This document shows positions 9,695 to 62,204 of a DNA stretch of 64,000 nt, piece by piece. The notes beneath the pieces were generated by a model. That model saw only the letters and a list, made by a program, of their open reading frames with translations, searched no databases and was not told the origin of the DNA. The position numbers and the translations under genes are program-made. Source of the stretch: Octopus vulgaris (Eukaryota); the NCBI GenBank assembly GCA_951406725.2, contig OX597817.1:120962001-121026000 (forward strand), read 5' to 3'. Position 1 is the first letter of the stretch, and the number at the start of each line of letters is the position of its first letter.

Positions 9695-9733
<39 letters not shown>

Positions 9734-10128
9734 TCAGTTTATTTCTTCTTATTCCTTTCTGAACAAGAGCATAGGCTCAAAAGGTAAATGACTTTTCCAT
9801 TGTTCCTGAGAGTCAAACTGATACACTTGCTTGTTATTCCTACACCTGACTTCATCTTTGTTTTTCTATAAATTTGAGCTATATATGTATGGACTTATGT
9901 CTGTGTGTCTTTGTATCTGTATCTGTCCCCTCCCCATCACTGCTTGACAACCGATGTTGTTGTGTTTATGTTCCCATAACTTAGTGGTTTGGCAAAAAGA
10001 GACCAGTAGAATAAGTACTAGACTTTAAAAAATAAATCTTGGGCTCAATTTATTTGACTAAAACACTTAAGGTGGTGCTCCAGTATGACTGCAGTCAAAT
10101 AACAGAAACAAGTAGACAAATAAAAAAA
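9525..10128 (+). mobile_element. CORE-SINE family A interrupted in its internal (TA)n by a pLTR-like element
   Basis: Head 9525-9682, (TA)n, insert about 9733-9885, tail 9895-10128. Confidence 0.9.
9733..9885 (+). mobile_element. Short pLTR-like element (family P) with hammerhead-like core
   Basis: cctttctgaacaagagcataggctcaaaaggtaaatgact; homologous to 56487-56680 (+), 55660-55850 (-) and 16347-16420. Confidence 0.65.
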
Positions 10129-16273: not shown

Positions 16274-16348
<75 letters not shown>

Positions 16349-16719
16349 CCATGATAGATCGCCAGCCACTACACATTCTTTATTTTCTCTCCTTGTTTCT
16401 TTCCGTGTTCCTTTCTGTGGTTGGGAAACAAGCTTCTTACTACACAGTGATATGAAATTTTACTGTATGTGTGATATCTATTCATTAACTTGGTCATGAA
16501 AAACTAGCTTCTAGTTCTGAGTTCATGTACAATTGCTACAACATTAAGTGCAGCTGAATCTCAATGTACTTTTACATGGCACAAATCAAAATAACATCTG
16601 GTTTCGAGTCATACTACATACCACTTCAGTCATTGTAAACACGACTGCAATTTATATCATTCAAAAAATTTCACTCATCTGATGTTATTAGGGTTCTTCC
16701 TATGTCTGTTGCTTTTCGC

Positions 16720-27323: not shown

Positions 27324-28869
27324 TTAAACAATGATGATAGTGATGATTATGATGAAGATGATGGTGACAATCATGACGAAGACAATGATGATGGTGATGA
27401 CGAAAACAATGATGATAATGGTGATGACGATGATGATGATGATACTACAATAATAACCAAAACAAATGCACATGAACTATTAACTTCAGTTTCTCATTGT
27501 TATAATTTGTTTATAATTCAGAAGCTTTTCTCCTTTGAGAGAAATATAAGATAATTTTAAACACATAACAGAACTTCATGTAATGATTTAATAAACTTTC
27601 CAAGTCACAAGCTTTAACTAACTTATTAGTTAGAAATGCAGTTCTGTCATTCATAATATTTCTTGATAAGTTAAAGATTTCAAAGAACAAATTTCAATAA
27701 GAAAATATTGATTACAGATGTAAATGTTAACGATTTCAGCACACTCAGCTAAGCACATAATTACACACCTGAAAAATACATACATTACACACACTTTCTT
27801 GCACATTCTCACAAATATGCATGCATACATGCATACATACATACATACATATATACGTACATACATACATACATACACACATAGAGATTAAGTAAAATAT
27901 TTTATTGGGATATTCAAAAATTGATCTTTTGTCATAAAAGAAAGTATTTTGTTAATGCTTAGGTCAAATGTGTTTTAGAATAAAGAATATTTCAAGTCAA
28001 GCCAGAACAATTTTGTATCCAATAAATATGTATAGATTAGCATATGTTTTACACTTTCTCCTTCCTTATTAAATTCTTTCTATATATCTATTTATATATC
28101 TATCTATATAAATCCTTCTCTCTCTTTTCTTCTTTCAGATCACTTCAGTCCTACCATCATCTTATTTGTTTTTTATTTAAAAAATACAAATCTTGTTGTC
28201 CCTAAATTACAAAACAGTAATTTTATTGATTTGTGTTAAGTGCTAGCTGTTATAAACAGAATATTGTATGTCTGACTACTTTTAGAGTCAGTCTAGATAT
28301 TTTTAATGGTATTTTGAAGGCTATTGTACATTTTACATTGACTGTTTTCAATATTTTCAACCAATAAACCCAATTGCATAGCATGAAAATCAAACAAGAT
28401 TCTATCAAGATTTGCCTAGAAGCAGTTGCTTATCCTGTTTTCTTGCAGCAAATCTATTTTCAACTCCTAAACATTCACATTCCTTGTGCCCAGATGGATT
28501 ATAACCTTATTGTTATCTAACAAATCACCATATGTATTTAATGAAGGAACAAAATTTCTACTTTGAATCACTGTTCGTATTAAGAACATAAGATTCCTTA
28601 CCATAGCTTTTCATGCAGCATTCTAGTATTATTTCCCACTTTTTCCTCAAGAAGTTGTTAAGTAACTTGGCATGTTAGAATTTACTAATATGCCAGAATT
28701 AATCTATACAATGTTGAAAAACAACTTAGCAAAACACTATTTCTTGTTGCTTTGACTGTCTCCCTTAACATAATGCAGATGATGTTTGAGAATAATTTAA
28801 TTTTTCTTTGGTTCTTTTCCTCTGCATCAACAAATATACATATTTTTGTTTTTATATTTTCTTATTGAT

Positions 28870-29121
28870 TCAATAGCTAATACTTCAACAAGTTATATTA
28901 AGTCTACCCCTCTGCTAAAAAGTTTCACCAAGAATGAAACATGTCTGAAGTAGTCTCGTGTGAATGACATTTCAGACTGTTTTCATTTCTCATTAATTCT
29001 CTTTCACTACACCATCAAATATAGATTTCTGTATGTTTACTTCGTGATTTGATGGTTAATACTTCAAAAAGTTATGGTAAGTCTACACCTCCACTCAAAA
29101 ATTCCATCAAGAAAGAAACAT
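28870..29121. repeat. Roughly 70-bp direct repeat (about 180-bp period) with a 60-nt hairpin after the first copy
   Basis: taatacttcaa.aagttat..taagtctac.cct...caagaa.gaaacat at about 28878 and 29057. Confidence 0.8.
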
Positions 29122-29319: not shown

Positions 29320-29645
29320 TTCCATCCATCCATTTTTTCCTGGAGAATCTTGTGGGTGGAATCCTCAGGCACTCTCCCCACAGGTTCTATCAGAAGCAAC
29401 AGTCATTAGACTGGATCCCCAAGCACGACCATCAAACACTATGAATATTATCCAGCCATCTCATTCTTGGTCTATCTCTAGGTCTCCTGCCAGTTGGCTT
29501 AACTTGAAGAATCTGTCTTGTGAGTCTTTCCTACCACATTCTAACTATGTTTCCATAGTACCATGGCTGTGAACTCTTAATGCAGAGAAGTAGCAACTCA
29601 ACCTGGAGAAACTCCCTGATCTCTAAGCTTTGCACCCTGTCCAAT
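29320..29645 (-). mobile_element. RTE-clade LINE 3' end with (GATG)n tail
   Basis: LDRVQSLEIREFLQVELLLL...YGNIVRM...KPTGRRPRDRPRMRWLDNI. Confidence 0.88.
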
Positions 29646-30004: not shown

Positions 30005-30700
30005 ATGTTTTTTTTTTCTTCTAGCACTGACTTAAGCCACTCAAGCTGCTTGCTCCTTTCTTATCATTTGGTTTGGGTTTAGAAGTTCAAAGTGGATTAA
30101 ACATTTCATATCCTACCAAACAGATAACAACACCCTACGTGGTGAAGACCACCTTTAGCCTTGGGTGCCAGCATTTCTCCTTTCCCTACCCACTGTCTTC
30201 AGCACTTAACATTTTTATAGAGAACCCATTTCTCGTCACCAGTCACTATTCGGTCCAAAAACCATTCATTCATGAGATGTGATATCATTAAACTTTGAAA
30301 ATTTGTGAGGAACCCATTGACCCAATTTGTTGACTTTTCAGATGGCACAGGTGTCGATGAATGGTTGAATGACCAAATCCCAACTTCTCTGCTAGTTGCT
30401 CAACAGTTACAATGGGGTTTTGTGCCATCAGGGTTTGCAGGACATCCTTGTCAAGCTCTACAGATCTCCCAGGATGAGGCTCTTCTTCTATTCCCAGTTC
30501 AGAATTTCTGGGAACCACCATTGACACTGGCTTACATTTATTGTCCTATCCCCAAACACTGCATTAATATTACTTGCACTTTCTTATTGAACTCAAAAAG
30601 CAAAATATGCCGAATATGCTCCTTTGTCACTTCCATTTCAGCTTTGAAAAAATAACTGTTACAATCAAACTGCACCCTTCAAATCTTGCACTAAGTACAT
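30005..30700 (-). pseudogene. Decayed mariner transposase (HTH and start of the catalytic domain)
   Basis: ATG at 30636: MEVTKEHIRHILLFEFNK...CQWWF, EEEPHPGRSVELDKDVLQTLMAQNPIVTVEQLAEKLGFGHSTIHRHL, WVPHK, VTGDEKWVLY, PKAKGGLH; several frameshifts. Confidence 0.93.
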
Positions 30701-32624: not shown

Positions 32625-33058
32625 CATCCATCCATCCATCCATTTTCTTCACTTACTATTCCTGTTAGAATCATGGTGGTAGAGTCTTCAGGTACCTTGT
32701 CTATAGGATATTATCAGAAGCAACCTTCATTTGATTTTTTGGTTGCATTACCAGGCACGACCAACTGAGACTGATGGATATTATCCAGCCATTTCCTTCT
32801 TGGACTACCCCAGTTCTCTTGCTCATTGGCTCAGCTTAAAGAGTTCAACTTGTGATCCTTTCCTATGACATTCTAACGACATGCCTTTAGCACTGGGGCT
32901 GTGACCTTTTAATACATAGAAGTAGCTGTTCAATCTGTAGAAACTCCTTGACCTCCAAGCTGCATAAGCTACAACCTGCCAGGGTTCCTTTGGAAGAAAT
33001 CCATTTTAGCCACTTGTACCTGTGATATGATTTTGGTCCCTACCCAGCATTACTCTAG
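32625..33058 (-). mobile_element. RTE-clade LINE 3' end, same family as 29320-29645
   Basis: Shared atattatccagccat, acattctaac and agaagtagc motifs and (GATG)n tail. Confidence 0.85.
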
Positions 33059-37862: not shown

Positions 37863-39073
37863 GATGTTCAAACAAGCAGATGTGTTTTTCTCTCTCTCTT
37901 CTATCTTTTCTCTTTTCAAAAAATGGTTCTCCCAGCATTTACTATTTTCTTTTGTTCTGGTCTAATGACTTGCCATATTTGTTTTTGTTCAGTTTCCTTG
38001 TATGTCTTCACTTTGACCTTCCGTAAATCCTAAATTTTATTTTAGAATTTATGGGAGCAACTGTCTTTGAAAACTCGTATTGAAAATGAGGAGCAGATAG
38101 ACAGCTGACAATTGATGAAGGGTCCTTTCTCTGCATTAACTAGTCTTGTTTTCCATTTTTTTTCTCGTTGTTTACATATTTCACTCTTTTTTCCTTCATT
38201 TGTTTATGTATTTCATGTTATTTGTACCGTTGGGGATGACCTGTACCCATATATGTATATGTGTATGCATGTGCAAATATATACATACATATGGAAAGAT
38301 AGAGAGAGAGAGAGAGTGTGTGTGTGTGTGTGTGATGCAGGAAAGAATGAGAACACAAGAGAGAGGAGGAGACAAATTATGAGTCAGAAAGGACTCATTT
38401 GATTTTATGCTTAATCAAAATGATATGGTTGCTTTTGTTTCTTTTATTTTTACGAAAAATCTTGAAAACTTTAATAATCAACTATGGTAGTATTCTATAT
38501 AATTCTAATTCATGGGTGACTGAGGAGATGAACTGGCAGCTATTGTGTCAGTTTGCCTTTTGCTATTAGCACTGAGCTGTTTAAAATGACCAAAATATTT
38601 AATATAAATAATGATTCATGAAGAGGTGTAATAAAACTAAAACACCTCCAAAGGTCTTATTAATGTTTACTCTACATACCTTCTTCTAATTTTAATTAAT
38701 TGAGATATTGATTGCGTTGTCTGCCCTGCTTGCCTTGAGTAGATGTGCTCATTGATAGTATGCTTACTTTTCCTTATTTCTGATGAATAAAAAAGTCTTT
38801 GATGAATGTAGTTTTCTTATGCATTACTTTATATTAGTGGTTACTTTACTAATTTGGTATTTGATGCTGTTGATAATGTTGCTGTTGTTTAGCCTCAAGT
38901 CTAAGGCACTCTAATTGCAACTATCCCATCTTTTATTCAGGCATGATATATCAAAGATTATACTATTCAATGTGTTCTTTCCTTTTTTAAAATGGAAGAG
39001 TGTGATTTAAAGGAGATTTAATTATTATTTTCTAGCCAGCTTTCTTATTGCTTGCTCAATCAAGATAACACTG

Positions 39074-40939: not shown

Positions 40940-42719
40940 ATATATTCTCTAAGAAAGAGACAAGATTGATTTGTAAATGGATTACAACTTCAATTATATA
41001 AAAAATAAAAACAATCTTGAATTTTAAGATAAATTATCTAGCAAGGTCAAAATTTTAAACTGAAAATTTTTTATAGAAAATATTGAAATATTTAAAAAGA
41101 AAAAAAAATCAAGTATGACATACTAAACCCCAATATATTCATCTTCTTTCTCCACTGTTTGGACTTTTCTTTCATAGGTTAGTGTTTAAAATATCTAAAC
41201 TTATTCTATACAGAAAATTTTCACAGTTAATTCATTTCTTAAAAAATGTCCTTTTCTTTAAAATTTTAATTTTATCTTTAAATAATTTTGATTTAAAAGA
41301 AAACAAAAATTATTATTAAGGAAGTTTTTCTCACGATATATTACAGGTGCTTGTTTTCATCATGTCTAGAATTACAATAGACAAAATTGTCTCTAGGGGA
41401 AAACATATTTTAGATGTAAATATAACATAGCATGGCTGTCTAATAATTTTACTATCTTCTCAATTGTATTTTGAAAATGTTTCAGTGAATTTATTCACTG
41501 GCAAAGGGCCAAAAATTCTGTGGTAAAATGTTTTGATTAAAATTTTTTTCCTGTATATCATAAACACTAGCTTTAAAAAACTAAAGTAAGATATAAGAGT
41601 TGTACATGGATGTAGATAAATATTTAATCTGTGAATCTACAACACTCCAAGACATTTTTTCATGTAAAAAAAGAAGCAGTAAGTTTATTTTCAAGGTTAT
41701 AAGTCATTGGTTTCTGATCTGGTTTCTCCATGCAATAGAAAATGTGTAACTTCTCAGTCTACATTAAACTCATCACACAGGGACATCTACCACAGAGTAG
41801 ACATTCTTTTCAGCCATGAGAGATAGATTACTAAATAATATATTGAAGACAAATTTAAGACTAAGACTTCATTTTTAACACATCAAGGATTTGTGAAGAA
41901 ATGGGAAAAAAACATTCAAATTAGAGTAAGAAGTATTTAGCTTATTAAGTTCTTTCCATTAGGATGGTAGAAATGTTTGTCTTATTTTGAAATATCAAGA
42001 TATAAGTGAAGCTTAATAATATGTTGGCACCTAATTGGAGGAGTTTAGAAAATTGCTTTTCTATAAAAAAGACCTTTAATATATTTTCTATTAAAAAATA
42101 ATTAAGTAAAACAGACAAAAAGAAAATTTATTGAGTAATTCAAATGGAAATGAGAGGGGAAAAAAATTAAATTAGATAACAATTTTCATTTCTAAAACTA
42201 TTAGTCTACTTAAAGATATTGCAAGCTTGAGTGTTTTTCACCAAGGTAGTTCACTGGAACAAGTGAGAGTTTGCTATGTAGGAATGAAACCAAATATTGT
42301 TTTGCAGTGAATTATTATATTACTTGGCCAGGTCTCATCACTGACCAACTTCCAGAGGTTGTTTATGACCAGAAATGATGGTGGATCTCTTTGTGTTTTA
42401 ATTTCCTGATTTTAGAATGAAGTCTGAATTTTTTCCTTTTATAAATATAGTATTTACAAATCCTTCACATAACATATAATTTTCCTCTCCTCTACATATA
42501 AATGATGCAAAAATACCTTATATGATGATAGGAAGAGTCAAACCACATTTTAAATCAAAAATTAAAAAGACAAAGAGATTTGTCACCATTTCAGACTATA
42601 AACAGTCTGTGGCAGCTGTTCAGAGAAGGAACCTGGTTATGTGATAGAATTATTCTACTGCATAAAAGATATTGGTTTCATCCTTACCAAGCAAAATCAC
42701 ATCTGGTTCAGCAGTTTAA

Positions 42720-45673: not shown

Positions 45674-46099
45674 GACAATAGGGCATAATTTGAAGAAGCT
45701 TTGGTTGCTATTTCTAGCAGCTTGAATAGACATTCACTTCTAGTTTATTGCTGTAAAAGCACAGCTGCTATGATGAGTAATCTGTTGGCTTGCTGTAAGG
45801 AGTTCAGTTGTTTCATATGCAACAGAATTACCTATTGTCCAAAGAACGACTTAGACTTGAGCACCAGTCATTTGATTCTTTGTCCTTTATACAAGATTAA
45901 GTTTAGAATATCCATTTCTTTATGAGTCTCATCATGACTCAACAAGTGATATGGAAAGATATTCTTAAGGAATTTCCAGTGGCCTGCTAAAGGTAGACAT
46001 AAAAATGAATTTTTTGCTGAGGATAAATGAATGAGTCAAGACTATTGAAAAGGTTGCAAGATGCAACGAAAATTTTAGGAAAATAAAAATAAGAAATAA

Positions 46100-46850: not shown

Positions 46851-48337
46851 TTCATTTTCAAGGATTTACCAACCATTAATAACTATTCTTAGAACCAACT
46901 AAAGTGATTTCACAGAATATACATTTAAACATTTTCTTAATGTTTGTTTTGTTACATTTTATTAAACTTTATTAGTTGGGTATTAGATGCTTTTTTTAAA
47001 GTCTGGCATGACTTTCAAGCATTATACAGATGTTTAAATTAATTATATAGAATATTTAAACCTCTATCATATCTACATCAATTGATTTGCCAGTCACTCA
47101 CCATCAAATATCCTATTCTTGAATGCTTATATGGCACTAAACTGGGCTTGAACTAGGAAAATTTAAACTAAGGCAAATAACATTTTACCCACCAGATTTC
47201 TGATGTATGCATCAGTTGATACAAATATTATTGCCTTGGGTCTTGAAATAACAGTTCTGTAGGCTCCTAGTTAGAATCCAGTCTGGGACAATGTACACAT
47301 CTAGGAATAAATGACCTGATAATAATCCATGATCAAATGGATGGAAATGTGGTGTCGATGTAAATATTTTAAAAAATTGTTGTTTTTTTTACCTCGAAAG
47401 ATGAGAGTTAAAAAAAATTATATTATTTAGTCTGTCATGATCCTCAGGAACCATAAAGCCAGAGCTTAACCAAGTTTCTATGGGGTCTAAGTGGCAATGA
47501 TTACAACTCCCCTCAGTAAAAAATACATAAGTCCATCACAGGGTTATACTATTATTAAGGACAAGCTTATTTTGAAACATTTAGATTTATAATCAAGCCT
47601 TTAATTTTATGAGATAGGTAGAAATCCCCAAAATTCTAGTGAAGCAAACGAACGTTGTAATCTCTACATATGGTGAGCTAATATGGTTTTTTAATTTACT
47701 AAAATTTCACATCCCATGAGAAGAACTAATAATTTTCATCATGATGAACTCTGGTTGACAAAAACAAGGGATACAACAACAGAATTTAAGCTTATTAAAA
47801 ACAGAGTGCTGTGAAGAATGAATCATATTTTTGAAGTGCAGTATCAACTCTGGATAGATTTTACTCCTATCAGACATTATCAGTAGAGCTTTGTCTTTCC
47901 TAATGAGCATTAGTAGCAACTAAGGAAGTAAAATAGCTATAACAGATAATGAAAACTGGTTCTTAGATATAATTTATAGAGATACATCTTGTTATATATA
48001 ACATTTGCACAAAACACTTGTGAGGCTTCACGTACTACACAAGAGATAAAATGTTGTATCTAAGCAAACATGTACACACTCATAGACATATACATATGTG
48101 TGTGTGTATATATCTAAAACTGTATCTTAATGTATCCTCATTAAAAGGAGACAGAGATTAACAGGGAGGTTAATGTGAGTTTTGATGCTCATAGCTAAGA
48201 GTGTTGTTGTTTAACCTGTGGTCAACTGATTGCACAGTATTATTTTCAAATGCACTCCAGTCTTGCCTATCTCATCTTATACACTAAAGTGTATCTCAGC
48301 GTAAATGATAAATTATGTTGTTACATACATACATACA

Positions 48338-48477
48338 AGCGTGGCTGTGTGGTAAGAAGCTTGCTTCCCAATCACATGGTACCGAGTTCAGTCCCACAGC
48401 ATTGCACCTTAGGTAAGTGTCTTCTACTATAGCCTCAGTTTAACGAAAGCCTTGTCAGTGGATTTGGTAGGCAGACG
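48338..48477 (+). mobile_element. CORE-SINE family A 5' half
   Basis: gtggctgtgtggtaagaagcttgcttccca...gtggatttggtag. Confidence 0.9.
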
Positions 48478-48480
48478 TCC

Positions 48481-48900
48481 ATCACACCAATTCTACTGAT
48501 GAACATCAGAGGCCTCTTGTAAAACAACAGCAAGAGCAAAATTGCATACCTGGGGGAACTGTCTGCATGCAGTCAAGCTATATGCATTGTACTCACAGAG
48601 ACTCATCTATCTGTAGACAATCCATTATGCAGAGATACACGTACCAATGTATACTGTGTTCCACACTGACAGACAAGTGAGTAGTCACGGTGGAGTTGTG
48701 ATGTACATCCGTGAAGATGTTACAGCATTGACACTGCTGTTGCATTCAATCCATTCTGCGACACACTCATAGTGCATCTAAAGCAACTTGATGTGGTAAT
48801 ATGCATATTATACCACCCACCTGATGCCTCAAACGACGATGGCAAGTTTGAGGAATGTCCTACAAAAATAAAGGAAGTTCTCACAAACCTAGACCAATGC
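48481..48900 (+). pseudogene. LINE APE-type endonuclease fragment (CR1/L2-like)
   Basis: LLMNIRGL, IVLTETHL, YTVFHTDR..SHGGVVMYIRED, ICILYHPP are canonical APE motifs; one stop and frameshifts. Confidence 0.9.
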
Positions 48901-48915
48901 TTTGGAGGGAACGAA

Positions 48916-49700
48916 AGAGAGTGTGTAAAAGTATATAGATGGAAGAATCAAGGAGTGGCAGGAAAAAAAAAGAGACAGGGACATAGTGAAATGAAAAGTA
49001 AGAAAGGCAAAGAAATGTGAGAGAGTGGGGGAGAGAAAGCAAGAACAAAGTGTGAAAAAGGTTGAAAAAGTTGTACACTTCACTATGTCCCTGTCTCTCT
49101 TTTTTTCTCGCCATTCCTTGATTCTTCCGTCTATCTACTTCTACACACTCTCTCTTGCTCTCTCTCTTCTCCCACTTCTTAATTCTTTTGTTCATCTTTT
49201 TCTCTCTCTTCTCTTCCCATGTAACACATTGGCCAACTGCTAGCCCTTTTGCGTCTGACCATGGTCACTGCCACATCGATATTCTTCCCTCTGCCATAAA
49301 GCTTCATTTCCACACACGCCAGCTGAATTAAATTCGTCCTCAGTCGAAAGACGCCTGTTGTTATGTCCTGTTATTATTATTATTATTGTTGTTTTTATTG
49401 TGTTTCTTTATTTATATTCGTGAAACATTGTCTGTTTTTCCATCCTTGTTTTCGCATACATTTGATGCTTTTTTCCAAGGAATCTAATTCTGTTAGCTTA
49501 GTTTTTCCTTGGGGCTGGCCAGATTGGAGCAATCTCAAGATTAATCAACCGAAATTTTGAGGATGATCCGGCTTTTGACTGAAGATAAAAGGCTTCGAAT
49601 GACCCGTCCTTGTTTTTTTTTATATTGTCTATCTAGATGTTTTGTTGTCCCTTTTTGTATCACCTTGTTGTCCAGATGTTTTGCGTTCTTGTCCCATTAT
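48916..49700 (+). mobile_element. Fold-back element: 78-bp inverted repeat plus probable Penelope-like 3' region
   Basis: Arms 48916-48993 and 49076-49153 (about 8 mismatches); CT-rich body ending in (TA)n. Confidence 0.55.
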
Positions 49701-50561
49701 ATATATATATATATACATATATAAATTCATTTTAAGACAGTTGTGTATGATTTCATAAAGATTTGGCTTTGGATGTAATTTCTAGCAAGCTTAGTCACTG
49801 TGTTGAGGTTTGTCAAATTAAATAGCTAAGACTGGCAGTTGAAACCTAACTGTGAGCTTCATCTCATTAAAGTCTCAGCTTCTAGCATTCATCATTCATC
49901 ATTCTGAAAGAAGTTTAGTATGAAACCAAAGAGTATGCGACAGGTTGTCAGATGTTATAGGAAAGCAAATACATAAATTAAAGCATATTCTGCATCAATA
50001 TTTAATTTGGTCTAATTTTATAGAATCTATAGATTTGTTCATTTATTCATTGTTTATAAATATTCTCCATCATTGTGGTACTCTGATAATGCATTCCATC
50101 ACTTACAATATACGAATGTGTGTGTGTGTGTGTGCATGTGTTTGCATGCGGGTGTTTGTGCGAATGATATTTCGGTCAAGTTAGTCTCTTGCTAGTCTGA
50201 ATTTCACCTTCTGGTGCAAGAGACTGACTCAACCAAAATAAAATGTATTATCAGTCTCTACCATGGTATTGATGAGTACTCTTTTCTTGTTACATAGTGT
50301 GGTTCCAAATGCACAATGTCAAAATAAAAGATGTGATGCACATGGTTGGAACTCATTTGATCCTAGGTCTGTTTGACCAGGAGTTTGTCTAGGTGGCTAA
50401 AAGCAACAATTATGGAACGTCAGTAAGCATTTCTATTCCTACATTCATTTCTTTGTTTCAGACTTTCACCACAGACCAGGATTTGCTTATCTCAAACTAA
50501 TTCAATGTTCTTTTGATTTTGCTGAATAATATATGTAGAAGAAAAATATAAAAATAAAGAA

Positions 50562-50563
<2 letters not shown>

Positions 50564-50612
<49 letters not shown>

Positions 50613-50847
50613 CAAAGCACTGCAAAAAGTTGTTTACCTCTCACTTTCTCTTATTTAGATTCATTTCTATCTTAGTATTGTGAAAAGTATCGCACAATAT
50701 ATTTGTTTTATATATATACATATATATAAATATATATATGTATATATATATATATAAATATATTATATATATATATATACATATAAATATATATATATAT
50801 ATATATATACATATAAATATATTATATATATATATATATACATATAA

Positions 50848-50920
<73 letters not shown>

Positions 50921-51280
50921 ATACATTTTTACTTTGGAGTTTTGTTTCTTGTTTAGAATATTTTTTAAATAGTTGATTCTTCACATGAGCACCATAATTT
51001 TCAGTTGGTAAACAATAATTCTTGCAGATGTAAATTTATTTTTTTGAAGACAAATCTGTCATTTACAAAATCTATTTTATTTTTCACTCTCACTATATAT
51101 ATATATAGATGTGTTACATTTGCATGTGTGTTTTTGTGTGTGTGAGTGCATGTGCATGAGTGTTTTTTTTCTCTTTCTCTCTTTATCTATCTATCTATCT
51201 TTACAGATGTATATATATATATATATATAAATAAGTATATATATACAAATGTATATATATAAATATATATATATACAAAT

Positions 51281-51311
<31 letters not shown>

Positions 51312-51320
51312 CATCATCAT

Positions 51321-51351
<31 letters not shown>

Positions 51352-51370
51352 GTGGTGATATATATATATA
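50564..51370. repeat. (TA)n-rich microsatellite tracts
   Basis: Directly visible. Confidence 0.95.
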
Positions 51371-51374
51371 TATA

Positions 51375-51857
51375 CTGGAGACGCATGCTCGGAGTGTTTA
51401 TATATATAGTCAATGCGGTACGCTACAGCCACGGATGGCGTGCCATATATATATATATATATCACAAGAGGAAATATATATATCTGACTATTTGGTCTTC
51501 GATGTGTATGTGCCCAGGTGCAGATGAGGCTGGCGAAGGCCACGATCGGATGGTGTTTGTTACGGCCCAGAGGCCATCGAGGGTATGGCTACGGGCAATT
51601 CGGATGGTTTTCTTGTGCCACCCATTCCAAGATACAATTCCATTAATGTTCATCTATTTTGATTTGTTTGATTTGATTTTATTTGATGTTGATTTTCACT
51701 TGCCTCACAGGCTTCACAAGTGTCCAGAAGGAAGGTATGCAGGTGGACTATAGTCCAGGTAGGGCCACAGGTATGGCCTGACTAGTCTTGCGGCTTCGGA
51801 TGGTGTTTTATGTGCCACCACACTGGTGGATAGGCTGGCGCGGACATCGATGGTGTT

Positions 51858-51860
<3 letters not shown>
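51375..51860. mobile_element. GC-rich repeat with internal tandem cggatggtgttt units (family E body), scrambled
   Basis: cggatggt/cgatggt motifs repeated about five times, tttga runs; related to 53340-53450 on the opposite strand. Confidence 0.55.
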
Positions 51861-51913
<53 letters not shown>

Positions 51914-52210
51914 CACATGTGCACACACACACACACATATATATATAATCATTATTTAACAATTGCCTTCAATGCTGGCATGAGTTGGACAGTTTTCCAG
52001 CAGCTGGCCATACAGGAGACTGCACCAAATTTCTATGTCTGTTTTGAATGGTTTTTGAAGCTGGATGCCCTTCCTAACACCATATGTATATATAAATATA
52101 TAAATTTAACTGTATTTATATATGCACATATATATATATATATATGTAAATAGGTAGGGATTAATTAAAGAATTAAAGGTAATGTTTTGTAGTAATCATT
52201 ATTAATATTG

Positions 52211-52250
<40 letters not shown>

Positions 52251-52476
52251 TAAAAATAGGGATGGTGGTTCAACAACAGATGTGTTACAGTTAGACAAAG
52301 TACCTTACATTGTTCCTTTTAACTCCTTGTTTCTTGAATTCAGATTTCACTGAGCTCAACTTTACAGACAATAATATAAAGAACTAGTCAAGTACTGGTG
52401 TTGAGGCTGTACTACTGTATCCTTGGACTGACAAAAGCCTTGTGAGTAGATTTGGTAGACGGAAACTGAAAGAAGC

Positions 52477-52525
<49 letters not shown>

Positions 52526-52531
52526 CACATG

Positions 52532-52573
<42 letters not shown>

Positions 52574-52899
52574 CATAATATACACACACACACATATATA
52601 TATATGCATATATATACATATATATATTATATATATATATACATATATATATAATAGGGTGAATGCTGCTGTTGATTAGCTCCAAGAGGCCATCGCCTCT
52701 AGCTAGCTATGTGACACACGAACCTGAGTTCATTATAACCTTATATATATGTGCATTTATTGGCATATGTATGGGTGCACATGTATATATTTCATGCGAG
52801 TCTGAGTGAGCATAATGCATATAGGCACATGTACGTGGGTGTGTGTGCATGCATGTGTATGTACATACATGCATATGCGATTGCTATGAGCATTTTTAC

Positions 52900-53203
52900 T
52901 TCTTGACTTTTTAGTTTCTCCCCTTTGTTTTTTTTCTCCCTTATTTAACGGTTATTCTAATAGCTCTTTTGTTTTAATAACGGTCACTTAAATAGTAATT
53001 TCTCTTTATTTAACAGTCATTTTCATAGCATTTTTTATTGCCTCAATAACTGACGAGATGCCGGGGGAAGGTTTCTACGTTGACACCCGAAACTCGGTAT
53101 CTTATTATGGCAACCAAATAATTGTCACATATATTACAGATAAATTCCTCTATTTACATAATATCAAGGTCTCATTCATTCTTTTGTTGTCTTACCATTA
53201 CTA

Positions 53204-53205
<2 letters not shown>
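52900..53205 (+). mobile_element. pLTR-like element with type I hammerhead ribozyme motif
   Basis: TTGCC-TC-AATAA|CTGACGA (53050)...GAAA (53089)...ATC|TTATT-AT-GGCAA; upstream triplicated ttatttaacggt.a unit. Confidence 0.72.
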
Positions 53206-53269
<64 letters not shown>

Positions 53270-53600
53270 TATACATATGTATTGTCAAGTACATCAACAT
53301 CAAAATAAAAACTCAAATGGAAATTGTAGTTAAAACATCAGTGCCAGTGACACATAAAAAGCACCAACCGATCGTGGCCATTTGCCAGCCTCCTCTGGCT
53401 TCCAGACCCTAGTCGAACCGTCCAACCCATGCTAGCATGGAAAACAGACGTTAAATGATGATGATGATGATGATGTATATATATATATACATATATATAT
53501 ATGCATGTATATATATATGTATATATATATGAACATACATATATATAAATGCATGTATATATATAAACATACATATATATAAATGCATGTATATATATAA

Positions 53601-53634
<34 letters not shown>

Positions 53635-53706
53635 ATGTATATATATATATATATATATATGTACGTATATATGTATATGTAAGTATATATATGTATGTGT
53701 GTATGG

Positions 53707-53751
<45 letters not shown>

Positions 53752-54093
53752 ATATATATGTATGGATATATATATATGTATGGATGGATATATATATGTA
53801 TGTAGGGATATATATATATATATATATATATACATATGCAATATAGAGTAAAGGTAGGAGAAACCAAAATAAACATGAGTTCATATTACTAGTTCTTATC
53901 TATTTTTCGCTGTTTAGGGTGTTTAATCTGCTGTGGTTAAACACCCAAATGCACTTGTATATCTAATGCAGGGTTCCATCCAACCTGAATGCTGAAACAT
54001 ACATAGGGACTAATAATATAAACTTGTGTTTATCTGAATTCCTTACATATATGCATACACACACACACACATATACATACATACATACATACA

Positions 54094-54127
<34 letters not shown>

Positions 54128-54129
<2 letters not shown>

Positions 54130-54288
54130 GGTGCAGGAGTGACTTCCTTACGAACCACATGGTTTTGGGTTCAGTCCCATTGCATGGCACCTTAGAAAAA
54201 TGTCTTCTGCTATAGCCTCAGGCCAATCAATGCCTTGTGAGTGTATTTAGAAGAACAGAAACTGAAATAAGCCCATTGTATATATATG

Positions 54289-54332
<44 letters not shown>

Positions 54333-54547
54333 TGTTTGTGTGTCTGGGTTTTTTCCCTATTATCATCACTTGACAACCAATGTCGGTGTGTTTACGTTCC
54401 CGTAACTTAGCAGTTTGGCAAAAGAGTCTGTTGGAATAAGCACTAGGCTTACAAAGAATAAGTCCTTCGGTCAATTTGTTTGACTAAAAAAAGGCAGTGC
54501 TCCAGCATAGCCGGAGACAAATTACTGAAACAAATAAAGGATAAAAG
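54128..54547 (+). mobile_element. CORE-SINE family A, full length
   Basis: aggtgcaggagtg...gggttcagtcccattgcatggcacc...actgaaacaaataaaggataaaag. Confidence 0.92.
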
Positions 54548-54587
54548 AATATATCTATATATAGCCATGACAAATATATTTTGTGAA

Positions 54588-54775
54588 TTTTTTTTTGTGA
54601 CTTATGGATTTTTAGGCAGCTTAATATTGGCTGTAATGGATATATAATACTCTCCATTTTGATTAATACACCTACTCTGTTGACCAATACGTGCGGGCAT
54701 TTATTTTTTTTCTGATTTATGCATTCTTAGACAGCTTAAGCTCGGCTATAATGGATATATATTACTGTACACTTC

Positions 54776-54780
<5 letters not shown>
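54588..54780. repeat. Roughly 80-bp partial tandem duplication between microsatellites
   Basis: ttag.cagcttaa...ggct.taatggatatata.tact at about 54612 and 54727. Confidence 0.8.
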
Positions 54781-54825
<45 letters not shown>

Positions 54826-54838
54826 ATATATATATATG

Positions 54839-55049
54839 ATTTCAACAATATTAAGGAATGACCCTATAGGCCATTCGATCCACTGGTTTACCAAAGTGTC
54901 GAAACTATGCATAGTCCAAAGATGATAAGGGTAAATGTGTTTATTTCTCCTTTGGTTTCAGAATTACAACTATTTAGGGGTTTGAGTTTGGCTGCTCTTT
55001 CTAGTGGGTCGAATGGCCTATCAGGGCCATTCCTTAATGTTGTTGAAAT
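54839..55049 (+). mobile_element. Fold-back element in (TA)n with hammerhead 3' half
   Basis: 48-bp inverted repeat 54839-54886/55001-55049; GAA-ACTATGCATAGT-C at 54901-54916. Confidence 0.7.
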
Positions 55050-55620
55050 TATATATATATTGTCTGTGACTATTTCTCTTTCTCACTAGACCGCTGGTGG
55101 CAAAAAATTTTTCTTGAATTTTTTGCTACCCTTATATTGATTAATTGATATATATATATATATGTATATATATGTTTATATATATGCTTATATATATGTT
55201 TATATATATATGTATAAATATATGAATATATATGTATATTTATAAAAAGTGTAGATGGCTACTACTACAGCCAATGAACTGCTGCTACAACTCCAACCAT
55301 CACCACCACGGTTACTACTACTACTACTACTACTACTAGGACCAATGGTCACTGCTACTACTGCTATTATGGCCAATGATCCTTTTCACAATTATAGCCA
55401 ACGAATCTAGTCAATGCACAACACAGCCACCCCCCCCCCTACAAAACACCACCACGTGGACTCTGTTGAGACTAGTAAGAAACAATTATGAACTTTTTTA
55501 TTACACTTAACTTTTTAAAATATTTTGGCTCAGGTTCGTTTTTTCAAGAAGAACCGAAACATGTAAATTCTCTAAGAAAATTAAAATTTATTTTATATAG
55601 TGGCATTTTTAAACTTCTTT

Positions 55621-55652
<32 letters not shown>

Positions 55653-55659
55653 GTTGAAA

Positions 55660-55850
55660 TATACAGTAAAACAAAAGCTGTTGACAGGAGTATGAACAAC
55701 AAGCAGTTGTATTAGATTGATGCTCAGGAAAGTGAGAAAGTCTTTTATGTTTTGAGCCTATGTTCATCAGCAGAAAGGAATAAGGGAAAATAAACAGAGT
55801 GAGAATAAAAAAATATCTTGTGTATTTAGCAATCAAGCATGGTGACTGGT
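55660..55850 (-). mobile_element. Family P pLTR-like element
   Basis: Minus strand cctttctgctgatgaacataggctcaaaacataaaagact. Confidence 0.65.
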
Positions 55851-56486
55851 TGGAGCAAAATAGGTTTGGCAGGAGAAATAGAAAGAAGGGGAGATAATAA
55901 AGTATTGGTGATCCCAAAACAAAGGTGAGCATGCATGTGTATGTATGTGAGAATGTGTATGTATGTGGATAGGGGCTAGTGACTTTGACGTGTGTCGATG
56001 TATGCATGTGTAATTGTGCATCTGTAATGTGTATATATCATATAAATTTATATTAAGGGCAAGCAAGTAAGTACAAAGGCTTAGCCACATGCTGAAAGAA
56101 GATGCCAAATGGCTCTAAACTACCTTAAATATCACAATAAACATGTATTGAACTTGGGGGAATAAACAGAAAAGGTTCACAAAAAGATTCAATTACATAT
56201 CAATTGAGTTCAAGATTATGGAGAAATTCCCATTTTCCATAATCATTGAAATATTACCCAATGCACATTAATACGAACAACTGTACATACATATGTGTAT
56301 ATATACATGTATCTATATCTATATCTATATATATCATCATCATCATATGTTTATAGATATGTATATGTATCTGATGGAGAACAAAATAATGGTTTACACC
56401 TGCTAGATGTGTCAAAACAATTGTCGTGATTAATAATAAATTCTTGTATATCCCATCTGTCTTTCATTTGCCATATATATGTGTGT

Positions 56487-56680
56487 GCAATAGATCGTTA
56501 GCCACTACACACATTTTTTTCTCTCCTTGTTTGTTCTGTGTCCCTTTCTGTAGAAGAGCGTAGGCTTGAAATGTAAAAGACTTTTTCTATTCCTGAGCGT
56601 TATACTAATACATCTGTTTGTTTTGTACACCACCTGTCTTTGTCTTTTATTTTTTTCGTAAAACTCTCCCTTTATATATA
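56487..56680 (+). mobile_element. Family P pLTR-like element
   Basis: ccctttctgtagaagagcgtaggcttgaaatgtaaaagact; ends in (TA)n. Confidence 0.7.
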
Positions 56681-56827
56681 TATAAGCCCTAACTGGTTCT
56701 CTCCCCTTGAAGGGGAACTTCCTCCTGCCTTCTATTTCTTAGCTAACACTCCTTCTCTTCATCCTTCATCTCTCACTCTGAAAGCAATCACAGCAACCAC
56801 CAACAGTCACCAGTCAAGTTTCTCATG

Positions 56828-56869
<42 letters not shown>

Positions 56870-56870
<1 letters not shown>

Positions 56871-57403
56871 CACATTCTGTGACCATAATGTCTGAATCAT
56901 CTGAAGGGAGACATCATGAATGAATGTGCTCAAATTAATGTAACTGTGGAATTACTGCATTGGGTTCATGTGAGACTCACAAAGTGCATTTAACTTTGCA
57001 TAACTAATGGAAACCATGTTGAAAAAACAACTGAATGTGGAGGTTGTGTTGGGACCCAAAATACTGTGTTATTTACTTTGAGAGGATCTCTTATAAGGGT
57101 TCGTGGTGCACATAAGCACTTGTAATTATATCATAGACAGTTGACAGATGAAAGTCATTTGCTATGGCTGCCAGTATTGCCAGATCACCTCATTTCACCC
57201 TGCTGTGTATTCCTCAGTGACAGATGTCCAGCAGGGCAATAACAGCCGAATCTCTTCTCATGATATATAGCTCAGTATTCTGTGCTCTAAGCAGGTTAAA
57301 AAAAAACCATTGAAATAAGCACTGAAGTACTGATGACATTAATATGGAACTAAAATCCTTGAATGGCATAAAAGGACCGTTGTCCAGTCATTGAAAGGGT
57401 TAA
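56870..57403 (+). mobile_element. Probable piggyBac 3' remnant
   Basis: TALGSCETHKVHL-(frameshift)-CITNGNHVEK resembles the Cys-rich C-terminus; ends tgaaaggg-TTAA. Confidence 0.45.
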
Positions 57404-58139
57404 AAAAATAAAGGAATGTGTGTGTGTGTGTGTGTGTGTGCTTGAAGGTGATTAAAAAAATCCAAATATACAAATCAAAATATGGAGAGGTTTCAACTAG
57501 AATAGTGTGATCAATATTTTGAAATGCTACACTAATTCCTTATTATCTGTGCCTAAATTATGTATGTAGAAACTATTTGGGTTCCACCTCTATTCTAACT
57601 GGAAGACTGAAAATCATATATAAATTTACATGTGTATGTATGTGCATGTGTCTGCTGTATAAATATACATACATAAATACATACACTCTCGCACACATAT
57701 ATATAAAATACTTTATTTGTATGTTAAATTGAAGATTTACAATAAATAAAAATGTATAATTCTTGTTGTCGTCTGTTAAATTAAACTCTTAAATGATGTA
57801 TGTAGAAAATGTTCAGATTTATGTAGTATGTTAAATGAAAAATCTAAATTATATTCTAATCTATTACTTGTTTCAATGAGCAGGTTTTGCCCATGCTGAG
57901 GTATCAGATAGAAAGTTTTATTTCCAATCCTTTGTTAAACAGTATGCCTAATACTGTATTGCTGAAAAAAATGATGGTGACTGAACTCCTTGCCTATGCT
58001 AAGCTGAGTCCTAAATTATTACATGTTGATGTATCTTAGTTCCAGTCTACTCCACACACACATTTGCACGCACACATATATACAGATACTATTGAAACAA
58101 GTGTATTAATACCTAACATATCCATTTGTTTCATGTCCT

Positions 58140-58312
58140 TGTGGTTGTTGCTAAGTGGTGTTGGCTTGTGTACATTCTTGTAACTTTGTGTTTTGACAAA
58201 AAGAATCTGATAGAACAAGTACCAGACTTTTAAAAAGTACTGGAATTTGACTAAACTCTTCAAGGTAGTACCCCAGCATGGCTGCAGTCCATTGACTAAA
58301 ACAAATAAAACA
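58140..58312 (+). mobile_element. CORE-SINE family A 3' half
   Basis: gtaactttgtgttttgacaaaaagaatctgatagaacaagtacc...ccagcatggctgcagtcc. Confidence 0.8.
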
Positions 58313-58315
58313 TAA

Positions 58316-58358
<43 letters not shown>

Positions 58359-58423
58359 GTTTAAATATATGTTGTGCAAGATTTTTTTTTGGCTAAACTG
58401 GCAATATGACCATTCCGAAATAT

Positions 58424-58486
<63 letters not shown>

Positions 58487-58647
58487 CATTTTTCTATGTA
58501 TGTATGTATATATGCATAGTATATGTTTTTCAATTCAACCCTTTTGTTTAATTGAAAACCTGAATGATGTATAGAAGAAATCCTTTTACATTTTGACATA
58601 CGTTAAATGGAAAACATAAATGTTTATAGACTGAATACATATTAATT

Positions 58648-58762
<115 letters not shown>

Positions 58763-58799
58763 TACATATATATGTAAATATAAACATAAATGTATGTAT

Positions 58800-58878
58800 A
58801 TATGCATATATATATTATTTATGTTATTATATGATTGAACACGATGCATCAATTTCCAAGTAAATTTTATCTTATATC

Positions 58879-58966
<88 letters not shown>

Positions 58967-58986
58967 CATAATATATATATATATAT

Positions 58987-59051
<65 letters not shown>

Positions 59052-59202
59052 GTATATATATCTGTATTTATATATATGAATATATATATTTATATATTAT
59101 TCAAAGGAATCCAATATATATTTATATATATATGCATATATATATTATTTATGTTATTATATGATTGAACACGATGCATCAATTTCCAAGTAAATTTTAT
59201 CT
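58800..59202. repeat. Exact roughly 72-bp duplication bracketing a (TA)n array
   Basis: atatgcatatatattatttatgttattatatgattgaacacgatgcatcaatttccaagtaaattttatct at about 58800 and 59130. Confidence 0.92.
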
Positions 59203-59205
59203 ATC

Positions 59206-59261
<56 letters not shown>

Positions 59262-59930
59262 CAGAGAGAAAGAGAGAGAGACCTTAATACATGTTAAGTT
59301 TCGTTATGCATGTTTTAATTCCAGTGGTGTGCTAAATTGAAACCCTAAATGATGTATGTAGAAAAATATTTTAATTCTTTGTTAAATAAGACCCTAAATC
59401 ATATACACAGAAAATAGTTTCATTACACTGTTAAGTTAAACTTAAGGCTGAAGTCATAGACTCAAGTCATTAACTGTGGATAAATCAATCATTGCACTAC
59501 ATGCTTCAACCAAATAATCTTGTTTGAATTGAACTAAATGAAATATAGAGACTTTTATTAAATTCCCCTGTCACTTAGTGTGTGTGTGTGTGTGTGTGTG
59601 CTAGCTATGTGTGTGTTTGATGTTTCACACCTGTGTCTTGCAAAGTCCTGTAAAATCTGTGTACTTTCCTACAACATAGGAATTGAAAACATCATTGATA
59701 TTGTTGTTGATATTATTATTGTCATTTTTCAAATATTATCAAAACAAATGTGGAAATAATAGAAAATTTGCTAAGTGTTAATGTTTACAGATATTTATGC
59801 AGTTTTCTCATTGTTCTAGGAGAACAGTTCTGTTACCAATTTTCAAAACAAACACATATTTTCTCAGTATTCTATTAAATTCAGTTTTTTATGTAAAAAA
59901 AATATCAACCATGTCAAAAATGTTAAGTAA

Positions 59931-60478
59931 CAGGTGCCAACGTGACTGTGTGGTGAGAAGCTTGCTTTTCAGCCACATGGTTCCAGGTTCAGTCCCACTG
60001 TCTGGCACCTTGGGCAAATGACTTCTGCTATAGCCTCAGGCCAACCAAAACCTTGTGAGTGGATATAACAAATGGAAACGGAAAGAAGCCTGTCGTGTGT
60101 GTGTGTGTGTGTGTGAGTGTGTGTGTGTGTTTGTGTTTATGTGTTATGTGTCTTTGCATCTGTATTTGTCTCCCACCACAACTTGACAACTGATGTTGGT
60201 GTTTTTACTTCCCCATTCTTTAGTGATTTGGCAAAATTGATAGAATAAGTACCATGCCTAACAAAAAAATTAAATAGATAAATACTGGTGTCGATTTATT
60301 CAACTAAAGCTGTATCGGCCTTTTCCTTTCTCTTGGATAACATCAGTGGTGTGGATAGGGGAGGCTGGTATGCATGGGCGACTGCTGGCCTTCCATAAAC
60401 AATCTTGCTCAGACTTGTACCTCAGAGTGTAACTTTCTAGGTGCAATCTCATAATCATTCATGACCGAATGGTGTCTC
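59931..60478 (+). mobile_element. CORE-SINE family A joined to a family C 3' half
   Basis: Family A to ...tcgatttattcaactaaag (about 60309), then aagctgtatcggcc...aactttctaggtgcaat matching the reverse complement of 34460-34635. Confidence 0.88.
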
Positions 60479-60513: not shown

Positions 60514-60738
60514 GTTTAACTCTTTTGCATTTAAACTGACCATATCTGGCCCAAATATTCTACCTGTTTCATACTGGTACTGGCTAGATCCAGCCTCTCA
60601 CACTTACAATGTTGTCTTATAACTGAACAGTCATATCATCAAAATCTCAAAGCTATGCGATAATGTATGATTAATACACAAGAAAGTGAATATGTAAGCA
60701 TTACACTTGAAAGAGAAATCTTATATAAAAGGGTTAAC
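60514..60738 (+). mobile_element. piggyBac-type TTAA MITE at the 5' end of the hAT transposase
   Basis: ttaactcttttgcattta...tataaaagggttaa; homologous to 16720-16880. Confidence 0.75.
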
Positions 60739-62204
60739 ATTGCATTGTTTGTTGCTAAGTCTGGGAAGTCTCACACAATTAGAGAAACATTACTTCACCC
60801 AGTTACTGAAGAGGTTTTGTCAGCCGTTGTGCACAAAAAACCCGATAACATTATGAAGAAGGTTCTATTTAGTAATAACACAATTTCTCAAAGCATCAAT
60901 AAAATGGCCATCGGTGTCAAACATCAGCTCATTAATATTCTCCAGTATTCTGAATTTTCTATACAAGTGGATGAACCAACTGCTGTGGACAATCAATGTT
61001 TGATCATGGTATATGTCTGGTATTTCAATGAAGACCTTCAACCTTGGGAGGAAATGCTGTTCACAGAGAAATTGTCACTTGATTCAAGAGGTGCAACTAT
61101 TTTTCATGCTCTCAAGTCTTTCCTTTTTGAACATAATATCCCACTCAGTAATATTCTTGCCTGTGCGTCTGATGGAGTCCCTTCAATGATAGGAAGATAC
61201 AGAGGTTTTTCATCTCTCCTAAAGCGTGAAATTTCTAACCAGATACTGACTGTTCATTGCTTGGCACACTGGCAGCATTTAGTGGCAAAAAATATGAATG
61301 GTAGGTTGAATGATGCGCTACAGTTAGTTATCAAGACTGTGAACAAATTGAAGTCCAGTTCCTCGTCTGATTGAATTTTCCATCAACTTTGTCTGAGAAA
61401 TGGTGAGAAGGGAGGACCATACTAAACTCTTATACCCTACCGAAGTGCAGCAGCTGTCGAAAAGAAACTGTGTTTTACGCTTTGTTGAACTGTTTCATAT
61501 AATCATATCTTTCTTTGAAGATACTCCACTATCCACTTCATTGATGGCTGCAAGGTGCGATATCCTTCTTCTTTGTGATATATTCACAAAATTAAATGAC
61601 TTGAATAAGTTATGGCAAGGAAACAAAAAAACTCTCGTTGATTGTAATTCATTTATCACTACTTTCATTTCGAAATTGGTATTGTATAAGACTAACATTG
61701 TAAAACGTCAATTCCATCAAATTCCACAACTTGATTCTTTGAAAGATGAATTAGTTGATGAGGATTTAACTACATATCACTACCTTTTACAATCATTGCA
61801 TGATAACATGGTGGAGTGATTTCAAGATGTTATTGCGCTGAATATCCCAAATTGGTATAGCAGTCCATTTGAGGTTGATGCAGTTGATAGCAAGGATGAC
61901 ATTCAGGAGGAATTGATAGAATTACAAAATGACAATGACACCACAATGCGATAATGCCGTAATGGCAAAGAGGGTTTGTGGTACCATCAGAGTATATTGA
62001 ATTCCTATCCCAGTCTGTGGAAACATCTGAGATTTCTTTTGCCTACCTCATACCTGGTTGAATCTGGTTTTAACCTCGCTGGAACTTTGCTTTCCCATAA
62101 AAGAATTGGACTGGACATGACACAAAGAGGAGATTTGTGGCTAAAGTTTGAAACCAAATGTTTCTGCACTAGCAGCATCGCACCAGACACATGGTTCTCA
62201 TTAA
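60736..62204 (+). pseudogene. hAT Buster/Charlie-family (ZBED5/SCAND3-like) transposase, 5'-truncated and disabled
   Basis: IALFVAKSGKSHTI, FSIQVDEPT, CASDGVPSMIG, VHCLAH (CxxH), LLYPTEVQQLS, PTSYLVESGF, RGDLWL, HQTHGSH*; stops at 61372 and 61817 plus frameshifts. Confidence 0.95.

Follow-up and report, generated by a model that had tools for sequence, protein, structure and literature searches.

The window analysed here is a stretch of 64 000 nt from Octopus vulgaris (contig OX597817.1, positions 120 962 001 to 121 026 000). Within it, some 4 kb (52650–56700) had been proposed in a preliminary description to be a ribozyme island, in which six or more unrelated families of Penelope-like elements or retrozymes, each bearing a hammerhead, had piled up at (TA)n arrays. 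We find one real, decayed hammerhead family of the Penelope type, perhaps one or two more relics, and no special island. The best explanation, which we hold to be probable, is a TA-rich pile-up of short repeats, likely octopod, that includes two worn copies of a repeat termed family F; the ancestor of F probably had a minimal type I hammerhead in intact form and probably owed its spread to the enzymes of a Penelope-like element, and the other five motifs are likely due to chance or truncation. A well-described motif is thereby extended to an octopod repeat, which we did not find in print, and a short octopus repeat becomes easier to classify.

Family F and its hammerhead

The letters and coordinates of all seven motifs first described proved right (7/7), and six sequence-unrelated types was a fair count: two motifs share one family, and the blocks of the other five lack a second copy. 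The shared family is F, a dispersed repeat of ~195 bp to which the motifs at 56544–56579 (+) and 55742–55777 (−) belong. All family comparisons are self-comparisons within the one 64-kb window. Family F has four copies there, two inside the island (a and b) and two outside (c at 9733 and d at 16346).

56488..56672, +, family F copy a, ~185 bp, with hammerhead relic at 56544–56579
55653..55845, −, family F copy b, with hammerhead relic at 55777–55742
9733..9879, +, family F copy c, outside the island, with hammerhead relic at 9755–9790
16346..16418, +, family F copy d, 5′ piece only, directly 3′ of (TA)36

In copy a the core box lies at 56548–56554 and is followed by an extra A, a 4-bp stem II with a tetraloop, GAAA at 56568 and a would-be cut site after 56575; its changes are T at position 6 and T at C11.1 and C15.2. 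Copy b has C at position 6, A at G12, A at G16.2 and a single stem II mismatch. A6 is kept in copy c, which has C at G8 and A at G12, and copy d stops inside the core box, with T at position 6.

The three full copies were aligned and read together, a position of the hammerhead counting as present when one or more of the copies had the required base, with no CpG repair. This combined parse is complete: a 4-bp stem I, the box, the extra nucleotide, a 4-bp G-C-closed stem II with a tetraloop, GAAA, a two-base palindrome and UA. A complete parse arose in 2 of 20 000 column shuffles, and in none of 260 triples taken from three control repeat families. Every position of the CUGANGA box occurs in at least one copy, the complete box in none of the three. 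The extra nucleotide between A9 and G10.1 is found in 3/3 copies; helix II is closed at G10.1–C11.1 by G-C in two and by G-U in the third, with 11 of 12 cells paired. GAAA is intact in one copy of the three, G12 having become A at a CpG in the other two. The palindrome at 15.2–16.2 is one change away from CG in all three, UA is kept in all three, and helix I has 4 bp in two copies and one mismatch in the third. Core damage falls largely at two CpG sites. Judged by its sequence, the predicted combined layout is that of the published Penelope-type minimal hammerhead. The earlier claim that such a hammerhead with palindromic stem III is present is borne out by this parse, and so is the claim that the copies are mutated, every full copy having a damaged core.

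An 8-nt start, recognised by eye, is common to copies b and d and lies ~70 nt before the core; copy a starts within 10 nt of it. This shared 5′ start suggests a fixed, non-autonomous unit of ~195 bp. Copies a and b lie 0.8 kb apart on opposite strands and are separate insertions; their origin as one head-to-head insertion was rejected on private states (a–b 11, versus b–c 21 and a–c 15). Half-distances between copies are 0.13–0.18, values that CpG decay inflates, and come close to the 0.2 at which a wave of Penelope elements has been reported in Octopus vulgaris.

Scan of the window for hammerheads

The five motifs outside family F are as follows.

53040..53110, +, motif 1, CTGACGA at 53050, GAAA at 53089 and TC at 53100–53101
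54901–54916, motif 2, GAAA, a 10-nt palindromic insert and TC, also read as GAAA, a 12-bp palindrome and C
55525..55568, +, motif 3, a GGTTC/GAACC stem, GAAA, CATG and TA at 55533–55565, with a 6-bp palindrome
56199..56250, −, motif 5, AT-rich hairpin (z −3.0) beside TCAATTGA, an 8-bp palindrome
56371..56428, +, motif 6, ACAC/GTGT and CAATTG at 56396–56425, read as AAAA, an 8-bp palindrome and C

A minimal-hammerhead descriptor was run on the whole window and its hits were sorted by the core mismatches allowed: 1 hit has none, 4 have at most one and 18 at most two. None of the 18 is a block of the proposed island. Every position on both strands was also scored for decayed hammerheads, in one version without bulges and a second with bulges and a deletion. 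The top-ranked site lies outside the island.

46042..46078, +, minimal hammerhead with U3-A8 core, sole zero-mismatch descriptor hit, single copy in the window

This site has an intact U3-A8 core, the extra nucleotide, a 6-bp stem II, an AT palindrome and a 3-bp stem I; 0.00–0.03 such sites are expected per shuffled window, and the nearest (TA)4 is 1.8 kb away. Ranks 2–4 are the three full copies of family F, at 17.7, 13.8 and 13.2 bits, for which 0.00, 0.12 and 0.18 sites are expected per shuffled window without bulges and 0.03, 0.33 and 0.43 with them.

Comparison with shuffled DNA, a check that the preliminary description had itself proposed, divides the motifs: the two of family F exceed chance as whole hammerheads, and four of the others are at chance. 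Motif 1 reaches 9.0 bits (3.8 sites expected per shuffled window) and motif 3 reaches 4.6–5.5 bits (23–40 expected), whereas motifs 2, 5 and 6 fall below 0 bits (347–1107 expected). Among simulated true hammerheads at 13% decay, 3% fall to 0 bits or below and 23% to 6 or below; at 20% decay these shares are 14% and 41%. Since scores below 0 are rare under simulated decay, motifs 2, 5 and 6 are not whole hammerheads.

Rfam covariance models gave no match at gathering score in the whole window. At E up to 10 over 52000–57500 there were 114 matches, none to a hammerhead, only microsatellite-driven miRNA and snoRNA models. The search with Rfam models or a descriptor that had been suggested for the blocks thus recovers none of them with either tool.

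Some weaker sites were set aside. The site at 17980 passes the relaxed descriptor but is a decayed stretch of a SINE-like (short interspersed element-like) repeat, family C; sites at 47316, 38620 and 10692 look relic-like yet lie inside the shuffle range. Of these, the hammerhead-like sequences at 47314–47353 (+) and 38609–38662 (+) have candidate 7-bp stems II and reach about 11 bits.

Several observations weigh against the reading that we prefer. No single copy of family F has an intact core. Position 6 is A in only one of the four copies, T in two and C in one. None of 8 pairs shows a compensatory change among the 3 full copies, and differences are not clearly fewer in the hammerhead span than in the remainder of the repeat (24/108 versus 93/336). 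The family is known from four copies in one window, and the scoring model, built on the published consensus, was written after these copies had been seen. Among 147 open frames (at least 55 residues, outside simple repeats, whole window), none matches a reverse transcriptase (RT) or GIY-YIG family. In the island, moreover, patterns of the hammerhead 3′ half are enriched over the island's own shuffles (P 0.002–0.004 for 4 of 6 pattern definitions); on account of these patterns and of two foldback elements, there could be one to three more relics.

Family F might then be an ordinary SINE-like or otherwise unclassified repeat that was never a ribozyme, its likeness to a hammerhead being accidental: no Rfam model matches, no copy is intact, no pair covaries and no retroelement frame lies nearby. 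That frames for RT or GIY-YIG are missing near F is expected for short copies. An accident would also have to account for a parse found in 2 of 20 000 and 0 of 260 controls, for ranks 2–4 in the window and for a spacing to the 3′ end that fits a Penelope-like element, and we consider it very improbable indeed.

Insertion ends and activity

A TA run follows the would-be cut site of copies a, b and c after 97, 93 and 93 nt, or 117, 113 and 113 nt from the start of stem II; a cut-site-to-TA spacing of this kind is found at 2.8% of window positions. Copy b ends in the TA array 55621–55652, and copy c has a TA array on its 5′ side and a short TA run at its 3′ end. In the element PAc of the green anole, reverse transcription starts 111–118 nt after the start of stem II (PMC11167929). 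The spacing of family F thus appears close to that of an active Penelope-like element.

Published work suggests how the copies could have been made. A Penelope-like RT/GIY-YIG protein would nick AT-rich DNA, and reverse transcription would begin inside the RNA, about 85–92 nt past the hammerhead cut site; with such a start, every short insert would carry the hammerhead close to its 3′ end. Family F would be a non-autonomous unit rather than a set of random truncations, and its copies would since have accumulated neutral damage, most of it at CpG.

In the hammerhead, G12 acts as the catalytic base and G8 as the acid. Copies b and c are without G12, and c is also without G8, so that both are predicted to be dead; in PAc, the change G8C abolished cleavage (PMC11167929). 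Copy a keeps both bases and is predicted to cut at best slowly, as a dimer. A natural A6C hammerhead variant has a cleavage rate below 0.1 per minute. Cleavage by minimal hammerheads is weak and takes place only in dimers (PMC4209133).

A further-reaching reading, which we consider unlikely, makes F a very abundant and so far unclassified short element of octopus, moved by Penelope-like enzymes. Its subfamily of copies a and d would have spread with U at position 6, hence with a crippled ribozyme, the fold serving as a protein-binding signal and not as a cutter; the foldback elements at 53849 and 54838, described below, would be inserts of other families of this kind, joined head to head and often wrongly classed as miniature inverted-repeat transposable elements (MITEs). 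Extrapolated from four copies in 64 kb, a genome would contain about 10^5. Should a high-copy subfamily really have propagated with an altered core, the finding would gain in weight: the two subfamilies, with thousands of copies, would offer a natural test of the role of the hammerhead. In the anole PAc, the hammerhead was not needed for insertion in vitro (PMC11167929).

Relation to known systems

The minimal hammerheads of metazoan Penelope-like elements are mostly solo, scattered and variable copies, with several families per genome, and occur in molluscs (PMC4209133, Cervera and De la Pena 2014). Family F resembles them in being type I, in the extra nucleotide after A9, in G10.1-C11.1, in the two-base palindrome that replaces helix III, in the short helix I and in the U-rich 5′ flank; the same work has the U3-A8 variant seen at 46042, and pairs on opposite strands a few hundred bases apart. 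It differs in that no octopus appears among the 56 motifs and 40 species seen there, the molluscs being Lottia and Crassostrea. The 4-bp stem II of F is at the short end of the published range, no linked open reading frame (ORF) was seen for F, and position 6, variable in F, is A in every row published there.

Poseidon PAc shares with F an insertion end about 111–118 nt after the beginning of stem II as well as AT-rich targets; unlike F, which shows no ORF, it is autonomous, with an ORF that starts at stem II (PMC11167929). Naiad and Neptune elements share the (TA)n preference and the inverted truncated copies beside a main copy, but Naiads are without hammerheads (10.1101/2021.04.23.441226).

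Animal non-LTR (long terminal repeat) retrozymes are likewise short, do not code for protein and carry a type I hammerhead, and a Penelope-like origin has been proposed for them; where described, they are tandem with canonical hammerheads, whereas F is solo and minimal (PMC7229834; 10.64898/2026.07.22.740005). Family F, short, non-coding and with apparently fixed ends, could be a dispersed monomer of such a retrozyme or a hammerhead-bearing SINE moved by a long interspersed element (LINE); solo retrozyme monomers have been described, and the size of F falls within their range of 150–450 bp. We think this highly unlikely. The retrozyme option, also named in the preliminary description, found no tandem units to build on, neither among the 91 tandem-repeat rows of the window nor in the self-comparison; the motif is minimal where published tandem retrozymes have canonical ones; and the copies of F stand in one register and are not circularly permuted.

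Penelope-like families are described in the paper on curated O. vulgaris repeats, whose accessible text has the word 'hammerhead' 0 times; the repeat library of PMC13282606 may already contain family F. In the giant squid genome paper, 235 Rfam hammerhead loci are given. Our literature search brought up no publication that treats hammerheads of octopus repeats. A study by Lunse et al. in 2017 reportedly deals with small hammerhead variants from Penelope-like elements and may already list octopus or position-6 variants. Further literature drawn on comprises PMC3088659, PMC6765202, PMC6962438 and PMC8967140.

The proposed island and its other motifs

Besides the motifs, self-comparison finds in the island copies of two SINE-like families, one further dispersed repeat, as well as two foldback elements; simple repeat makes up 26% of its length.

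54144..54274, +, copy of SINE-like family A, one of 10 family copies in the flank test below
54335..54563, +, copy of SINE-like family B, one of 10 family copies in the flank test
53283..53460, +, piece of a further dispersed repeat, with 7 other matches in the window
53849..54046, strand not assigned, foldback element with arms about 70–80% complementary and a perfect 12-bp inner hairpin at 53917–53946
54838..55050, strand not assigned, foldback element of 213 bp holding motif 2, with 47-bp inverted ends, 91–92% complementary, between TA runs (z −10)
48001..60000, strand not assigned, TA-rich zone containing the island, with 22, 28 and 17 arrays of (TA)5 or more per 4 kb and 0–13 elsewhere

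We take families A–C to be SINE-like from their layout and from the usual look of octopus repeats, not from a library match.

The island has 22 TA arrays, or 5.4 per kb against 1.9 per kb window-wide, and likely belongs to a larger TA-rich zone in which short repeats of several kinds gather. In all four copies of family F one end is no more than 25 nt from a (TA)4 array, the background for two of them being 1.9%. The same adjacency holds for 5/10 and 6/10 copies of two SINE-like families, for 0/9 of a third such family and for 0/3 of the other hammerhead-like sites outside the island. The (TA)n flanks claimed for the mini-elements are therefore real for F, where all copies adjoin TA arrays, but they are shared with two SINE-like families, and the density of arrays is equal over 48–60 kb. 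Because 22 of the 123 TA arrays lie in the island, the chance of finding two of the four F copies there is about 0.15 (binomial, by hand); the local density of F copies follows the TA arrays.

Whether many unrelated Penelope-like or retrozyme families, six or more and each with a hammerhead, targeted these arrays, the weak motifs being older or cut-off copies, turns on the 3′-half patterns and on the motifs themselves. In loose form the patterns number 13 in the island against 4.0 in its own shuffles (P 0.002), and 4 against 0.46 when stem II is included; together with the P values given above, this favours a ribozyme island. The bounds of the island were, however, chosen after the fact, and its count is reached somewhere in 7/30, 3/30, 3/30, 6/30, 24/30 and 26/30 shuffled whole windows for the six definitions; under the loosest, another 4-kb window exceeds it (16 versus 13). 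G-C-closed hairpins before GAA or AAA are no commoner in the window than in shuffles (53 versus 57.6), with 6 versus 2.8 in the island (P 0.10).

Motif 1 is the strongest of the five. It has both boxes exact, the TC triplet end and a 5-bp stem I, and is the only site of the window with both exact boxes and stem I, a combination reached in 6.5% of shuffles at 5 bp, which speaks for an island. No stem II closes at 10.1–11.1 and there is no palindrome in that register; the sequence folds as a bulged hairpin (z −2.7). As a hammerhead relic motif 1 is a doubtful candidate. Just upstream, at 52938–53040 (+), stand three diverged units of ~33 bp with TTATTTAAC-like starts, under the tandem-repeat threshold.

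Within its foldback element, motif 2 is placed in the left arm, 16 nt in, and 133 nt from the TA end. An inversion may have cut off a hammerhead here and left its 3′ half, so that motif 2 would resemble a 5′-truncated copy beside an inverted piece, an arrangement described for Penelope-like inserts, which would favour an island; alternatively, motif 2 may belong to a MITE-like element. The arms around it are 92% alike, so that a box should still be recognisable there, and we rate motif 2 as a somewhat unlikely relic. No CUGANGA or UUGANAA box stands 5′ of helix II in any of the motifs at 54901, 55533, 56200 and 56396, four of the five outside family F, and their scores are at chance. In motif 3 the 5′ box is 3 positions off CTGANGA and the score is at chance level; it is probably a chance motif. 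Motif 5 has no 5′ box and motif 6 no fitting box with stem II, both with chance-level scores, and for each of motifs 3, 5 and 6 a hammerhead origin is very improbable.

The foldback element at 53849–54046, which is not among the motifs of the preliminary description, has a similar layout, with about 90 nt from a would-be cut site to a TA run. Its hammerhead likeness is 6.7 bits (12 expected) with four core changes, and we think a relic at 53910 quite unlikely. The inner hairpin is followed after 7 nt by CTTG and T, an arrangement that also resembles a Helitron-type 3′ end. Foldback elements with long inverted arms also occur elsewhere, at 10588–10788 and 42257–42709, which weighs against an island. 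That at 10588–10788 has an exact CTGAGGA box in its centre and scores 12.3 bits, with a poor right half.

According to published work, a genome normally has many unrelated families, and to that extent an island of them would be no surprise. Taken with the missing boxes, the chance-level scores and the shuffled windows, we nevertheless judge it highly unlikely. Of the six or more hammerhead families proposed, one is shown, by two of the seven motifs; one further motif is open, one is perhaps a truncated 3′ half and three look like chance, so that the five motifs outside F are likely chance or truncated remnants. Nor does the region stand apart as a special place for ribozymes: relics lie outside it as well, that at 46042 far from any TA array, and shuffled windows reach its counts. 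A true multi-family island would show only shared TA-tract targeting, already described for Penelope-like clades. The preferred reading, a TA-rich pile-up with one hammerhead family in it, accounts for the region in these terms.

Also in the island, 54589–54659 and 54704–54774 form a direct duplication (71 bp, 82% identity, 115 bp apart) with a TA array at its end.

Window setting

The window is AT-rich and repeat-dense, with 91 tandem-repeat rows across it, and holds no tRNA genes. Pattern scans with family F gave 0, 0 and 0 hits in metagenome, genome and viral contigs, as did scans with a SINE-like stretch of the window (0, 0, 0). Protein searches with chance translations of repeat copies found no further copies; 3 low-identity matches in repetitive proteins were judged spurious, and atlas matches to chance translations were all under 0.8. 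Among sequencing runs, part of 54838–56800 is found in 20 of the 24 rows listed, half of it in none, and no RNA run is listed; these rows were not used as evidence.

At 60664–61819 (+) lies a broken relic of a hAT-type (ZBED8-like) transposase, whose ten best matches are Octopus proteins at 69–82% identity, which makes an octopod host likely. A helix-turn-helix match at 30291–30545 (−), with E 1e-4, is typical of the N-terminus of a DNA transposase. A short frame at 48715–49017 (+) resembles, by eye, a LINE-type endonuclease fragment in its first half and has no Pfam match. Self-comparison also gave two related pairs, 29321–29629 with 32631–32961 (about 310–330 bp) and 28779–28942 with 28964–29121 (160 bp).

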